Below are positions 1-11,623 of a DNA stretch of 15,168 nt, piece after piece. Source of the stretch: an archaeon (lineage in GTDB: Archaea > Asgardarchaeota > Thorarchaeia > Thorarchaeales > Thorarchaeaceae). Location of the stretch: contig JAJRZD010000029.1 of NCBI GenBank assembly GCA_024275415.1, positions 1 to 15,168 of the forward strand, read 5' to 3'. The first letter of the stretch is position 1. Every line of letters begins with the position of its first letter. The notes under the pieces were generated by a model, which was not told the DNA's origin, searched no databases, and worked only from the letters and a program-made list of their open reading frames with translations. The translations under genes and the position numbers were made by a program.

Positions 1-56
1 CTAGAGAAATCCTGGGCCCCGAGTACCTGCCCTACCGTCAGGAGAAGCAGCTGTAA
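1..56 (+). repeat. Repeat copy 1: 3' end of an acyl-CoA dehydrogenase-like gene (AREILGPEYLPYRQEKQL*); may be the end of an intact gene lying upstream of the window
   Basis: CTAGAGAAATCCTGGGCCCCGAGTACCTGCCCTACCGTCAGGAGAAGCAGCTGTAA, 56/56 identical to 7919-7974; stop TAA at 54-56. Intactness of the upstream gene cannot be seen. Confidence 0.9.
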
Positions 57-61
57 ATCAG

Positions 62-88
62 TATGAAGGGGCCACGTGCTCCTTCGTA
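62..88. terminator. Hairpin after repeat copy 1 (possible bidirectional terminator or recombination-site element)
   Basis: TATGAAGGGGC-CACGT-GCTCCTTCGTA forms an 11-bp stem (2 G-T pairs), followed by the T-rich tract TCTTTCTCTTTT; it lies between two convergent stop codons. Confidence 0.55.
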
Positions 89-107
89 TCTTTCTCTTTT
101 TAGGCAA

Positions 108-300
108 TCAACTGCAGTCGGCATCCGATCCGTATTCCCTTTCTTCGAGTGCTCTTTTGATGACATGCTCGATCGTGCTGATAGCCAATGAATGGCAGAG
201 GGCGTAACAGAGCCACCAAAAGAGGTGTCAGGTACGGAGTAACGGCCTGCGATTTGTGAATGTCCAGTCAACCGGTGTCCCTCTCTAGTGTTGCATATGT
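108..300 (-). pseudogene. Degenerate homolog of the small HTH-like gene at 8025-8225
   Basis: Minus strand 179..108 reads STIEHVIKRALEEREYGSDADCS*, versus STIEHAIKRTLPEKEYNLDTNDI* (13/23 identical, same length). Upstream SFGGSV resembles SYGAST in another frame. The 5' limit is approximate. Confidence 0.65.
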
Positions 301-371
301 CGTTCAAAAGCACCTTCTCAGTTTGTCCTCTAGCTTGATGACTCGCAGGCATATTACTGGTGATCTCTCGT

Positions 372-1016
372 TCATAATGAGAGAGCTAAGACAAGTAGAA
401 CGACGATTCCAACTAGATACATAACGAAGTTGTAGATCGTGTATGGCACACTTCTACGAGTCAGTTGGGCAGATCTTTCCGTTGTTTCCTCAGCCGCGAA
501 AAGAGGGAGCGTATCGAGCTTCACTTTGACTCGAGCGGCATATTGTTCTGATTCATTACGTTGTTGCGTTTCGAGGTAGAGCAAAACAGGAAGGACAAAC
601 GCAGAATAAAGAACAGGCACTGCCAACAGGATCGTAGGACTGTCAAGTGCAGATAATGCAGACAGTATGGACAAAAAGGGAATTAACATGCCGAGAGGGA
701 ATAGAAACGGAAGAATGAACATTTTGATGTATGAGAACTCGAGAGGCATTTCTAGGTTTCGGACCAGAGTTGCAAGATGTTGTTTTACGCCTGAAGCAAG
801 GTCGGTATCTCGTATATTTAATATCAATGCGCCATCTTCAGAGAGAACTGTGTCGCTGACAGGTTTCCCAGATGATCCTATCTTCTCGAATTCGATCCTC
901 ACCGAGTGGAGTGGAAAATCTTCCAGCTTGTCTAGTCCAAGATCCCGATATGATGACAGAACTAGTTCTTCAGATTGATCAATACTCAATGACTTAAGCG
1001 GCTCTTCTCTATTCAC
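372..1016 (-). CDS. Hypothetical membrane protein (214 aa, soluble N-half, about 3 TM segments)
   Basis: Long ORF with hydrophobic runs FILPFLFPLGMLIPFLSILSAL, ILLAVPVLYSAFVLPVLLYL and IYNFVMYLVGIVVLLVLALSL; no family motif recognised. Confidence 0.75.
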   Translation of the reverse strand: MNREEPLKSLSIDQSEELVLSSYRDLGLDKLEDFPLHSVRIEFEKIGSSGKPVSDTVLSEDGALILNIRDTDLASGVKQHLATLVRNLEMPLEFSYIKMFILPFLFPLGMLIPFLSILSALSALDSPTILLAVPVLYSAFVLPVLLYLETQQRNESEQYAARVKVKLDTLPLFAAEETTERSAQLTRRSVPYTIYNFVMYLVGIVVLLVLALSL

Positions 1017-1285
1017 TGAAATCTCCTGAAAGTGATCCTTATCCGTAATTGCCTGAAAATGACTGAATTCTCATTTAAATAATACGGCATTTCCAGATCT
1101 GTTGCAAAACTTATGGGATGGATCATGAGAGGTAGTTTGCACGCCCCGCATTATATACCACCACCTTGAGTAATGTTTCGATGCCTCGTCTGTTGTCACG
1201 CCTTGACCTCAAGACCCCTCCCAACTTCACCTTCACAGCCTCTCTCACCGACTCCTCCTCCCGTACTGGTATCTCCTCAGGGTCT

Positions 1286-2425
1286 CTACGGTACAATCAA
1301 GGAGTCTAACTGTTCGATAGTTTCTTCTATGAAGCGTTCTAGTTCATCGCTTTCAAGGGCGGCCAGATGGTACTCGAAGTACCTTTGTCCAAGAATCTCA
1401 GGCTTCTCACCAAGCACCCCTTCGTACGATTTGAGGAGGGCAATCAACAAAACTGCTCCAAGTGCATAGCAGAGTCCAAGGAGCCATGATCCAAAGTTTG
1501 AAAATGCAAATGGGAGGGATGCGATGAATGTTGCGATAATTACAGTCGTTAATGCTGTCCGCAGGAGCATACTTGTCCTTTTCCCAAAGTGTGCTAGAGC
1601 TGCTCCAAGCACAATGAGTCCTACGAGGGCTGAAGCAGCTGCCAGTGTAAAGTATACATCTGCCTGCAATGGGGGAGAGATTGGCTGAGCAATATAGATG
1701 AGCAACGGGACGAGCCAGAGAAGGACACACTTTGCGGTTGCTAGTCTGGTTTCCATTGATTTTGCGTATTCAATTGCATTTCGCCGGTTTGGTAAAGAAT
1801 CTGCTTGCTGTCTTGAACGCAAGCATTTGCGCAAGGCGACGAAGCGTTCCTCGAACAGAACGCGATTGCTATTTGTCACAGTTATGAAGATCCAGTATGC
1901 ACCAAAGGCTCCGAAGAAGTTCAGGGTGACATCAGAAAGGACTGCTACGAGATAGAACTCCCAGACTCGTACTGCTTCGATGGTGATTGCCATTGTTGTG
2001 AATATGCCTGTTGGCAATCCTATTCCCAGTGCCATGAAGGCGCTGAGGACGATAGACCCGACCATCCATGTAGTCCTGTTCTTGGGCTGCCCATTCTGTA
2101 TCCATATCACTACGCTATCGAGCCAGAGGAATGTGAGAGAGCTTGTGATAAGTGAGATGCCAATGTAGAGGTATGTGTGCATATCAAGGAGCATGATCAT
2201 ACTTGCAAGTGTCAACCCCATCACTCTGATTACACATAACCCTCTTCCTCCTGAAACCCAGGCATTCCGTAGCAAAATCACCAGGTTAGGTACTCCAATC
2301 CTTGAAACTGGGGCAACGAATATCTCGTTGAGAAATCTCAAATTCTGCCTCCCAAGTATCTTTTCAAACCTCATGATTGCTTCATTCCGACGGTCTTCGT
2401 CGAGTGCGCAGCCTGCCATCGCCAT
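1286..2425 (-). CDS. Hypothetical polytopic membrane protein (379 aa)
   Basis: Many hydrophobic segments in two clusters separated by a charged loop; acidic C-terminal tail. The start codon is ~14 bp from repeat copy 2. Confidence 0.75.
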   Translation of the reverse strand: MAMAGCALDEDRRNEAIMRFEKILGRQNLRFLNEIFVAPVSRIGVPNLVILLRNAWVSGGRGLCVIRVMGLTLASMIMLLDMHTYLYIGISLITSSLTFLWLDSVVIWIQNGQPKNRTTWMVGSIVLSAFMALGIGLPTGIFTTMAITIEAVRVWEFYLVAVLSDVTLNFFGAFGAYWIFITVTNSNRVLFEERFVALRKCLRSRQQADSLPNRRNAIEYAKSMETRLATAKCVLLWLVPLLIYIAQPISPPLQADVYFTLAAASALVGLIVLGAALAHFGKRTSMLLRTALTTVIIATFIASLPFAFSNFGSWLLGLCYALGAVLLIALLKSYEGVLGEKPEILGQRYFEYHLAALESDELERFIEETIEQLDSLIVP

Positions 2426-9965: not shown

Positions 9966-10043
9966 TACACCTTCTACTCTTTCAATCAAGCACTGCCGTG
10001 CAGAATGTTGTCAATTACAGGCTTCCAGATATCATCATGACGA

Positions 10044-10439
10044 TCAAGAAGTTCCCATCATCTGTGCATGATGGTTCAACGCAAACATCTCCGATATCTC
10101 CTCTGGCAACTGTTTGAGATACTCGAAACTTGATTTTGAGACCATGAGAAAGTTATCGATAATATCAATCATCGTAAGGGGGAATTGTTGTAGGTTCATT
10201 CGTTCTACCCCAGTCGCAAAACATTCGCGCACTTCTGTATCTAGCTGGCTCTTTCCCTGACCCTAGCGATTGAAGATGATATCCATATGCCATGTAAGAT
10301 GACCAAGAATCCGACTTGTTGGATTGAGCTTTTGTGTAAGTTGGTACATGAGATCTTCAGGCTTCAATCTCATAATGGGCCTCAAAACATTCCATTGCGC
10401 GAGAGCAAATGTATCAATTGCGAATTCCTTGAGGCTCAA
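10044..10439 (-). pseudogene. DinB-family protein with an in-frame TAG and a degenerate C-terminus
   Basis: TTG at 10439 after AGGAG: MSLKEFAIDTFALAQWNVLRPIMRLKPEDLMYQLTQKLNPTSRILGHLTWHMDIIFNR*(10263-10265)GQGKSQLDTEVRECF... The L.PEDL.YQ...NP...ILGHL motif is DinB-like. Confidence 0.65.
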
Positions 10440-10587
10440 TATCTGATTCTCCTATTTGGATCCTCTACCATCTAATATCAGACTATTATGCAAGTCTTTT
10501 ACTCGCTCGTTCCGAAAAATACATCATCATAGATTAAATAACCGCCGATTGCAGAAAGTAAAAAAACTAGCCAGTCGTATCATCAGG

Positions 10588-10698
10588 ATGGTAGTCAGGA
10601 TCGGAACCATGGGAAAACGTCTTGGGGTGTCACCTTCGACCTTGAAGAGGTGGGAACGCAAAGGGGCATATGTACCATGTAGTAGGACAATAATGTAG
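10588..10698 (+). pseudogene. MerR-type HTH remnant (IS607 TnpA N-terminus or excisionase-like)
   Basis: RIGTMGKRLGVSPSTLKRWERKG fits the IG..A..LGVS..TLRRWE..G pattern; no intact resolvase domain follows. Confidence 0.55.
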
Positions 10699-11262
10699 TG
10701 CAGGTCGTGCGTACAAGCTGTGGGCCGTCCCACCAATGATGCCATGACCTATGCTGACCGGGCCCTGTCCGCATACCAGGGCTCACTCCAGGCTTCTCCT
10801 TGCGGAGGTGACAAGTTCAATAGTATGCGCAGAAGAGGGTAATGTATGGTGTTAGACAGGATCAATATTGGTGACGGCTAACCTGACAGGAAAATTGCAT
10901 GGAACGGTGGAGCATCTGGAGGTCGTGTCGCGGACACTCGAGTTGTTATGCACCACAAGATATGCGCGTCTTGCTCACTGAAACAATAAGTTGCTTGGCA
11001 AAGAAACATATTGATTTGCCAAGGCTGGAGTCCATATGCTGTGTGTTAGGAGTTATTCAATTACTCTCCTTTTTTGACTCCTGCTCTCGTGTTTGTCAAT
11101 GCACAGAATGATCATTCATTATATTGGGAGGATTGGTGAACACGACACCTTTGAAGATGAGGTTAAGAGGAACTCAAAATCCCTGATGGCAATAGGAAAG
11201 CACATGTACATATAGGAACCATATGAATCATTAGCAGGACGACACGGAAAGGTGATGCTCTC

Positions 11263-11487
11263 ATGCGTGTGGATTATGATAAAGTGGCAGATTCTGTCTA
11301 TTTCAGGCTCAAGGGAGAAAGGGTGGTAGAGAGTGTTGAGATCTCTGAGGGAGTGATCATTGATTTTGACGAAAGAGGAGAGATTTGCGGGATTGAAGTG
11401 CTTGCGTTTTCCAAGAGGAAGCTGGACTTGAACCAACTGGTCAAATGTGGGGATGGAGAACTGGTCTCTAAGGTTGCCACAACGTGA
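11263..11487 (+). CDS. DUF2283-family antitoxin-like protein (intact)
   Basis: MRVDYDKVADSVYFRLKGERVVESVEISEGVIIDFDERGEICGIEVL; AGGTGA upstream. Confidence 0.9.
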   Translation: MRVDYDKVADSVYFRLKGERVVESVEISEGVIIDFDERGEICGIEVLAFSKRKLDLNQLVKCGDGELVSKVATT

Positions 11488-11560
11488 TCATCTTCACAAG
11501 ACATGCGTTGGAGAGGATGCGACAGCGGGATATCTCACGCGATGATATCCTCAAAGCGCT
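11484..11560 (+). pseudogene. DUF4258-like toxin N-terminal fragment
   Basis: MIIFTRHALERMRQRDISRDDILKAL; the ORF then loses family character and runs antisense into the methyltransferase gene. Confidence 0.75.
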
Positions 11561-11623
11561 TCAAGATACAACGGATAGATTGGGACACCACATTTCAACC
11601 ATTGATACAAGTCCGCTTGCGGT

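Follow-up and report, generated by a model that had tools for sequence, protein, structure and literature searches.

Why does one archaeal contig hold five truncated copies of the 3' end of a single gene, and what brought in the unrelated genes that lie between them? The stretch analysed here, called the window, is the entire contig C5 (15,168 bp) of a 3.5-Mb metagenome-assembled genome (G000), and the duplicated end belongs to a gene for acyl-CoA dehydrogenase (ACAD). The window is best read as the distal and older portion of a hotspot for insertions at the ACAD 3' end. The accretion hotspot is well supported; that it is fed by repeated homing of elements built around a free-standing LAGLIDADG endonuclease is given a probability of about 0.6. 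A first-pass annotation, made from the DNA letters alone, had taken the organism for a probable Asgard archaeon, and the closest homologue of a neighbouring protein indeed lies in a genome of the same family (G014) annotated as Candidatus Thorarchaeota.

ACAD tail copies and the insertion hotspot

The repeat is recognised by a 23-nt core, TACCGTCAGGAGAAGCAGCTGTA, which matches the + strand of the window at 33, 2453, 4843, 7951 and 9270 (<=3 mismatches) and had no match in 200 shuffles. A 53-mer of the repeat is present at 4, 4814 and 7922. All five copies translate as the ACAD C-terminus, ...REI(L/F)GPEYLPYRQEKQL followed by a stop codon; each keeps this stop, and most have a terminator-like hairpin. 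Core search and translation confirm what the first-pass annotation had described, namely five same-orientation copies separating unrelated cargo. Its start coordinates for the last four (2439, 4811, 7919 and 9238) are close, marking the best-conserved part of each copy and not the true left edge. The copies are:

1-56, + strand: ACAD 3' end copy 1; at least 17 codons plus TAA, left edge cut by the contig start; the 56 nt are identical to 7919-7974
2441-2476, + strand: ACAD 3' end copy 2; 11 codons, DVYPYRQEKQL and stop, the shortest
4801-4866, + strand: ACAD 3' end copy 3; 21 codons plus TAG
7817-7974, + strand: ACAD 3' end copy 4; about 50 codons with one frameshift, the longest; tblastn match to ACAD residues 364-414
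9225-9293, + strand: ACAD 3' end copy 5; 22 codons plus TAA, left edge at the family-wide boundary described below

Successive copies lie 2.4, 2.4, 3.1 and 1.3 kb apart. Their pairwise identity ranges from 63 to 100%, and the flanks of each are unique. Outside the window, the repeat occurs in the 3.5-Mb genome only at the ends of the short contigs C13 and C124 and in the intact gene on C49, so it is local and not dispersed, which settles the first-pass concern over a genome-wide repeat. The intact ACAD that the same annotation had proposed to look for is that gene of C49 (171-1412, minus strand), located 170 bp from the contig end. No second ACAD was found downstream of the window (via C78). 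Contig ends coincide with repeat edges. C13 and C124 are variants of window junctions, identical to them at 98% (window 9099-9293, C13:2952-3146) and 97% (window 7945-8205, C124:82-342) and then divergent, which suggests that several array variants may coexist in the sampled population. Scans for tRNAs and Rfam families gave no match in the window; the repeats are therefore not att sites derived from tRNA or RNA genes.

The hotspot is conserved in relatives. Seventeen orthologous ACAD loci from other species and genera were put in a common orientation; the orthologues are 79-91% identical and have three Acyl-CoA_dh Pfam domains. After the intact gene, extra direct copies of its own tail number three in G005, two in G014 and one each in G009, G017, G011 and G023, and arrays are also found in the metagenome contigs L045, L046 and L047 and in the single-contig genome G046. 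In seven other loci no extra tail is present within the 4.6-20 kb of downstream sequence examined. Downstream of ACAD no gene families are common between genera, and none of window modules 1-4 is matched at the DNA level in six genomes of the same genus. Since the site is empty in some relatives and filled in others, and the modules differ in content, the first-pass proposal of an accretion hotspot at this gene end holds; identical content and order in relatives, the outcome that it had named as contrary, was not seen. Many assemblies have a contig break within a few hundred bases 3' of ACAD.

The left boundary of the duplication is shared. In nine of nine distal copies from six relatives, homology starts 60-69 nt before the stop codon, at ATCGTCATGG. 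Window copies 3 and 5 fit this boundary at the protein level (21-22 codons), copy 2 is shorter and copy 4 longer, and ACAD fragments overall span 11 to 162 codons. In G014 the distal and resident tails show synonymous differences only, as expected if displaced tails once belonged to a working gene.

In G046 (locus L054, C1:3051000-3070999), positions 9895-14164 hold four ACAD tail fragments together with an endonuclease remnant.

Hairpins and endonuclease genes at the junctions

A GC-rich hairpin with a T tract follows nearly every ACAD stop codon, resident or displaced, and its stem sequence varies among copies. It is also found 3' of ACAD in genomes without arrays and is most simply the terminator of the gene. 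An attC-like role was considered and ruled out because the hairpin follows ACAD in array-free genomes as well and resembles a terminator.

The repeated unit extends past the coding part of ACAD and includes the decayed 3' end of a LAGLIDADG endonuclease gene. This second component was missed by the first-pass annotation, which had recognised the ACAD part. The junction features of the window are:

57-205, unstranded, with the remnant on the minus strand: hairpin (about 61-89; -16.5 kcal/mol, z -3.4), T-rich tract and degenerate endonuclease 3' remnant
2496-2585, minus strand: remnant of the last ~30 residues of the LAGLIDADG endonuclease, corresponding to its C-terminal helix-turn-helix (HTH); positions 658-687 of 688 in the family hidden Markov model (HMM), E 2.8e-4
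4867-4966, unstranded: hairpin, T tract and degenerate endonuclease 3' remnant; 4803-4966 is 75% identical to 7911-8077
8025-8228, minus strand: 66-aa remnant of the endonuclease C-terminus; HMM E 8e-10 for 8070-8228

Remnants follow four of the five window copies: those after copies 2 and 4 are recognised by HMM, those after copies 1 and 3 by DNA homology (75-77%) to the flank of copy 4. Window bases 1-205 are 77% identical to 7919-8122, and the remnant frame there reads ...ISTIEHVIKRALEEREY. The remnant at 2496-2585 also has 50% tblastn identity to residues 539-562 of the G014 endonuclease. A longer C-terminal remnant is present on C124 (207-587), with 127 aa, one stop and an HMM E of 2.8e-27. 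The open reading frame (ORF) at 38-352 on the minus strand is probably spurious; it overlaps the remnant region in a different frame.

Complete endonuclease genes are found next to the resident ACAD of relatives. The first gene after ACAD in G014 is convergent with it and encodes 563 aa, and family members are tail-to-tail with ACAD at nine loci or more (G014, G008, G001, G006, L045-L048 and C49). C49 of the present genome ends inside this ACAD-adjacent gene; the rest of the gene is not assembled, and matches in this genome are confined to C7 (a paralogue), C124 and the end of C49. G017 and G016 retain endonuclease fragments beside ACAD. The units flanked by ACAD tails can be very small: between the resident and the first displaced tail, G014 has the endonuclease gene only, and L046 has the endonuclease and a HerA-like ATPase.

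The protein has the features of a LAGLIDADG enzyme. It matches Pfam LAGLIDADG_3 (PF14528) at 24.6 bits (cut-off 22.5), and its AlphaFold model, built from 19 homologues, has a pLDDT of 87 and predicts a two-lobed LAGLIDADG fold. The top Foldseek matches in the PDB are the endonuclease domains of TliVMA and PI-SceI, I-DmoI, I-SceI and WhiA (E 1e-5 to 1e-3). The domain order is HTH repeats, the LAGLIDADG core and then one HTH. An Asp is invariant in both motifs across 19 sequences, LLGTYVSDS (D309) and LQGYADGDG (D433), and motif alignment suggests that these are the catalytic positions. WhiA, which also combines LAGLIDADG and HTH domains, has LAGLIDADG helices without such a terminal Asp pair.

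The family is widespread and patchy. Of 61 family genomes, 31 have it, frequently in multiple copies and frequently reduced to C-terminal fragments, and the wider family comprises 447 clusters at 50% identity in public data. Paralogues adjoin other genes. In G047 (L055, C61; 8100-10671) a pycB-like carboxyltransferase gene has a paralogue upstream, and beyond that paralogue is a displaced copy of the pycB 5' end, 88 codons long and 91% identical across 254 nt. In G055 (L056, C48; 8426-10231) a paralogue is convergent with etfA and flanked by a 41-nt direct repeat that is non-coding and comprises part of the hairpin and the last codons of an endonuclease gene. The paralogue of the present genome (C7:33121-34815) adjoins etfBA.

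Several further observations concern the endonuclease and its neighbours. ACAD and electron-transfer flavoprotein (ETF) are functional partners, and the proximity of family members to genes of both may be a coincidence. A HerA/FtsK-like ATPase of 780-860 aa is encoded directly upstream of the endonuclease on the same strand at L046:7420-9996, L047:7486-10035, L048:7657-10008 and in G008 (L035). It matches the PADLOC HerA and mad8 models and might cooperate with the endonuclease or be a defence module; the endonuclease itself matched no defence family in PADLOC. In G041 (L049, C1; 10255-15450), tandem pairs consist of a 519-546-aa protein gene, each convergent with a short family member of 249-344 aa that lacks the N-terminal HTH region.

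Proposed homing cycle, rival explanations and precedents

An element would consist of a replacement for the last ~22 ACAD codons, followed by their stop and the terminator hairpin, a convergent endonuclease gene and optional cargo. The endonuclease would cut an ACAD allele that is older or has no element, at a point ~66 nt ahead of the stop, near codon -22. The left break end would then invade the ACAD body of an element-bearing donor allele, and synthesis would copy the donor's replacement tail, terminator, endonuclease gene and cargo, ending once the new strand pairs with the recipient tail through an older tail junction in the donor. The ACAD body would provide the left homology, and the junction of older ACAD tail, hairpin and endonuclease 3' remnant the right homology. 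The recipient would keep a whole ACAD and gain the element, while its old tail and earlier modules would shift outward; displaced endonuclease genes would decay, and repeats of the cycle would build the array.

Such a cycle would explain the intact proximal endonuclease, the distal occurrence of remnants only, the synonymous-only differences of the G014 tails and the shared boundary. It is a matter of speculation that endonuclease 3' remnants are kept because they lengthen the right-hand homology. The boundary codon varies with endonuclease status: it is an Ile codon in nine of nine alleles without the endonuclease and ATC or ATA in the displaced copies that reach it, and it is replaced by TTG, CTG or GTG in 7 of 11 alleles with an endonuclease or remnant, whose lineages are not independent. 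This pattern, a weak point in favour of the cycle, is the one that self-immunity would produce. The first-pass annotation had named homology-assisted capture of DNA from relatives as its alternative, and this comes closer to the homing cycle than the integrase that it had put first.

A classical integrase appears quite improbable as the driving enzyme. Its attP would include the ACAD tail, a recombinase encoded in the newest element or elsewhere would insert elements serially, and the endonuclease would be a passenger. Partial copies that share a boundary and lie behind an intact gene are what tandem site-specific integration produces, as in tycheposons (10.1101/2020.12.28.424599); moreover, the present genome has two tyrosine recombinases and one resolvase elsewhere, with PF00589 matches only on C119, C116, C43 and C127, and its proximal array is unassembled, C49 ending 170 bp after ACAD. 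Yet the arrays and modules examined yielded no recombinase: Pfam searches detected no tyrosine or serine recombinase among the window ORFs, as the first-pass annotation had said of the window, and none in the modules of relatives that were scanned. PF00589 (Phage_integrase) and PF00239 were searched in this genome and five relatives, where matches were far from the locus or absent. PF00589 (E <= 0.01) had no match in the whole assemblies of G014, G017, G005 and G011 (93-98% complete), so that no Xer-type recombinase was detected by this model in these four, and PF00239 had none in the array-bearing assemblies of G005 (95% complete), G017 (98%) and G011 (93%). In control genomes the two models matched in 14 of 14 (four archaea included) and 12 of 14, respectively. 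Three array-bearing whole assemblies therefore lack both families, which speaks against the first-pass idea of an integrase using the gene end as its att site, as do the smallest repeat-flanked units, made up of the endonuclease alone or with the ATPase, and the variable length of the ACAD fragments, from 11 to 162 codons.

Recombination without any dedicated enzyme is also rather unlikely. In that case the arrays would arise by unequal crossing-over, or by single-crossover insertion of relatives' DNA, at a portable block of homology made up of ACAD tail, terminator and endonuclease tail; the block would be duplicated and cargo shuffled, and the endonuclease would be an ancestral neighbour. 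The repeated unit does span both sides of the stop codon, arrays do occur in genomes without the endonuclease, and C13 and C124 compared with the window appear to represent coexisting population variants of one junction. However, the patchy, fragmentary and multi-copy distribution of the endonuclease (31 of 61 genomes) is the pattern of a selfish gene and not of a conserved neighbour, a paralogue has left the same displaced-terminus footprint at the unrelated pycB, and a sharp left boundary across genera is unexpected from homologous exchange alone. An assembly artefact, or a dispersed repeat (miniature inverted-repeat transposable element, MITE) that merely seems clustered, is extremely improbable. 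In its favour, the contig begins right at one of the copies, and copies also terminate two further short contigs. Yet the copies differ and have unique flanks, which rules out an assembly duplication; the overlaps that join contigs in this assembly measure 141 nt and exceed the identical stretch of 56 nt, which rules out a collapse artefact; the repeat is found nowhere else in 3.5 Mb; and independent assemblies of other genera have the same structure.

Several points weigh against the homing reading. The window and the intact ACAD are on separate contigs of a bin with 4.5% contamination, and the linkage of C5 to C49 is assumed. The case for cleavage, transfer and homing rests wholly on footprints in DNA. 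The HMM gives no significant match for the remnants that follow copies 1 and 3, and to the right of copy 5 no remnant is recognisable. The array-bearing G005, G011, G023 and G009 have no recognisable endonuclease remnant beside ACAD, and in G005 and G011 the whole assembly is free of family members at E <= 1e-10; so decay may leave nothing behind, or such duplications also arise by another process. The shared boundary does not discriminate, since an integrase whose att site contains the gene tail predicts the same one. A test for foreign (mosaic) resident tails, comparing body and tail identity in 19 genes, found tails less similar and tail types (e.g. QKGQFD) crossing genera, but it had little power because all compared genomes are <=85% identical and the tail is 69 nt long. 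An orthologous intact ACAD was not found in G046 (single contig, 86% complete). In G009 (L030, C26; 1-12485), ArsR-like, 149-aa and 525-aa genes lie inverted downstream of ACAD before the displaced tail, and the same genes lie upstream of ACAD in the present genome, an arrangement that calls for caution. The right flank of the window is paralogous to genes upstream of ACAD (see below), so the region has been rearranged beyond the simple model.

The nearest precedent for the homing cycle seems to be the mORFs of fungal mitochondria (Allomyces atp6; Glomus atp6, atp9, cox2 and nad3), in which an endonuclease brings a foreign C-terminus and the native one is left downstream (PMC3630166). In both cases an endonuclease gene, LAGLIDADG here and LAGLIDADG or GIY-YIG in mORFs, sits at the end of a conserved gene, a replacement C-terminal piece is inserted, the native C-terminus becomes a non-functional downstream duplicate, and differences between the duplicates are largely synonymous. 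Here the endonuclease gene lies intact beside the target end in at least nine loci of relatives and as remnants in the present genome, with a displaced terminus beyond it in G014 and at pycB in G047. The differences are clear: the present locus is on an archaeal chromosome; the endonuclease is convergent and terminator-separated, not an in-frame fusion, and its 560 aa include additional HTH domains at both the N- and the C-terminus; insertion is repeated, giving arrays that reach five or more displaced tails; and kilobases of unrelated cargo, defence-type genes included, are carried.

Other known systems share parts of this organisation. Tycheposons of Prochlorococcus, in which tandem elements are separated by partial tRNAs (10.1101/2020.12.28.424599), and archaeal elements that target tRNA genes likewise place newcomers beside the intact target, displace older elements, and leave partial target copies between modules, with decayed mobility-gene remnants and defence and niche cargo. 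At the ACAD locus, in contrast, no tyrosine recombinase was found, the target is the tail of a protein-coding gene and not a tRNA, the mobility remnant is a homing endonuclease, and movement would need a homologous donor allele and not a circular intermediate. The array resembles an integron, the label chosen by the first-pass annotation, in being a one-site platform of stacked cassettes that look promoter-less, each with a hairpin-containing repeat. The label itself does not hold: there is no IntI (no PF00589 in the window or near the intact gene), no attI and no attC, the repeat being a coding gene tail with its terminator, and the modules are multi-gene with genes on both strands. Tn7-like transposition finds no counterpart, as no TnsA/B/C or TniQ Pfam families are present among the window ORFs and the duplication here is 30-150 nt of coding sequence.

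Free-standing endonucleases also adjoin variable genes in the 'intronless homing' of T4 Seg/Mob, in Haloferax and in HeimM2, and break repair is thought to co-convert their flanks. Endonuclease-driven island transfer has been suggested for a LAGLIDADG gene of a Haloferax glycosylation island (PMC5867893), and HeimM2 of Heimdallarchaeum is a cargo element with a homing endonuclease (PMC8813620). These cases lack stacked displaced termini, unlike the repeated events at one position here. A literature search, which covered few subscription journals, found no description of the ACAD site or of endonuclease insertions that recur, with cargo, at the terminus of a chromosomal gene. By analogy with the mORFs, what is new here would be a stacked, cargo-laden variant of endonuclease terminal duplication.

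A broader proposal is put forward tentatively, at slightly less than even odds: Thorarchaeota might possess a cassette-accretion system run on homing endonucleases instead of recombinases, in which HTH-LAGLIDADG-HTH enzymes each target a different housekeeping-gene terminus (ACAD, probably pycB, possibly etfA), bring a replacement terminus and carry defence and surface genes between strains, with the stacked old termini serving as the right homology arm. If true, this would provide a recombinase-free route to defence and surface-gene islands in Asgard archaea, extend a fungal mitochondrial mechanism to a prokaryotic chromosome, and explain why assemblies break right after ACAD in many Thorarchaeota. 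The predicted target, around ACAD codon -22, is long and the enzyme has accessory HTH domains; the idea is testable in vitro.

Cargo modules and right flank

The modules between the tails, and the one beyond the last of them, hold the following:

372-2425, minus strand: module 1, a 214-aa (372-1016) and a 379-aa (1286-2425) predicted membrane protein with 3 and 7 hydrophobic segments, no Pfam family
2947-4773, + strand: module 2, a defence-type ATPase (2947-4236) and small overlapping ORFs at 4241-4525 and 4513-4773
5015-5364, + strand: module 3, a frameshifted DUF2283 / truncated DUF4258 pair
5358-6746, minus strand: module 3, a 462-aa prenyltransferase-type alpha-alpha toroid protein
6739-7701, minus strand: module 3, a 320-aa signal-peptide protein
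8307-8720, minus strand: module 4, an ORF without a family
8595-9203, + strand: module 4, an ORF without a family
9099-9224, minus strand: module 4, a 5' fragment of an ATP-binding cassette (ABC) transporter ATPase gene, the full version of which is on C13
9294-11620, unstranded: the distal module, with a DUF2283 gene (9771-9965), a repeat derived from an insertion sequence (IS) (10543-10833), and DUF2283 with a truncated DUF4258 (11263-11753)

The right end of the island lies at ~11600. The module 2 ATPase matches Pfam AAA_21 (2.6e-30) and PADLOC HEC-01A (1.5e-50), and module 2 also has a weak HEC-01B match; the ORFs at 4241-4525 and 4513-4773 may be a single frameshifted partner gene. The first-pass account of the cargo stands for the ATPase with a small partner, for the toxin-antitoxin-like modules, which are decayed DUF2283/DUF4258 pairs, and for the membrane and signal-peptide proteins, and is unsupported for its TOPRIM assignment.

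The DUF2283/DUF4258 (toxin-antitoxin-like) pair is present in two copies, at 5015-5364 and 11195-11557, which are 84-91% identical. DUF4258 is truncated in both, and the first pair is frameshifted. DUF2283 also adjoins a distal ACAD fragment in L045.

The ~280-bp repeat at 10543-10833 has at least 10 copies on other contigs of this genome, 78-87% identical. It consists of fused, stop-interrupted remnants of an IS607-type TnpA HTH (MAKRLGVSPSTLRRWERKGAYIP) and a TnpB C-terminus (CRSCGQAVDRHTNAAMTYANRAL), and has the appearance of a MITE of IS605/IS607 origin.

The right flank of the window, 11628-14249, encodes a methyltransferase and proteins of 306 and 209 aa. It has 74% DNA identity to C16:34287-34967 and to C15 of the same genome, and the matching gene set on those contigs precedes the intact ACAD by a few kb (path C16 > C15 > C49). 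This likeness may mean that a paralogous duplication brackets the hotspot, or that a second relative was co-binned.

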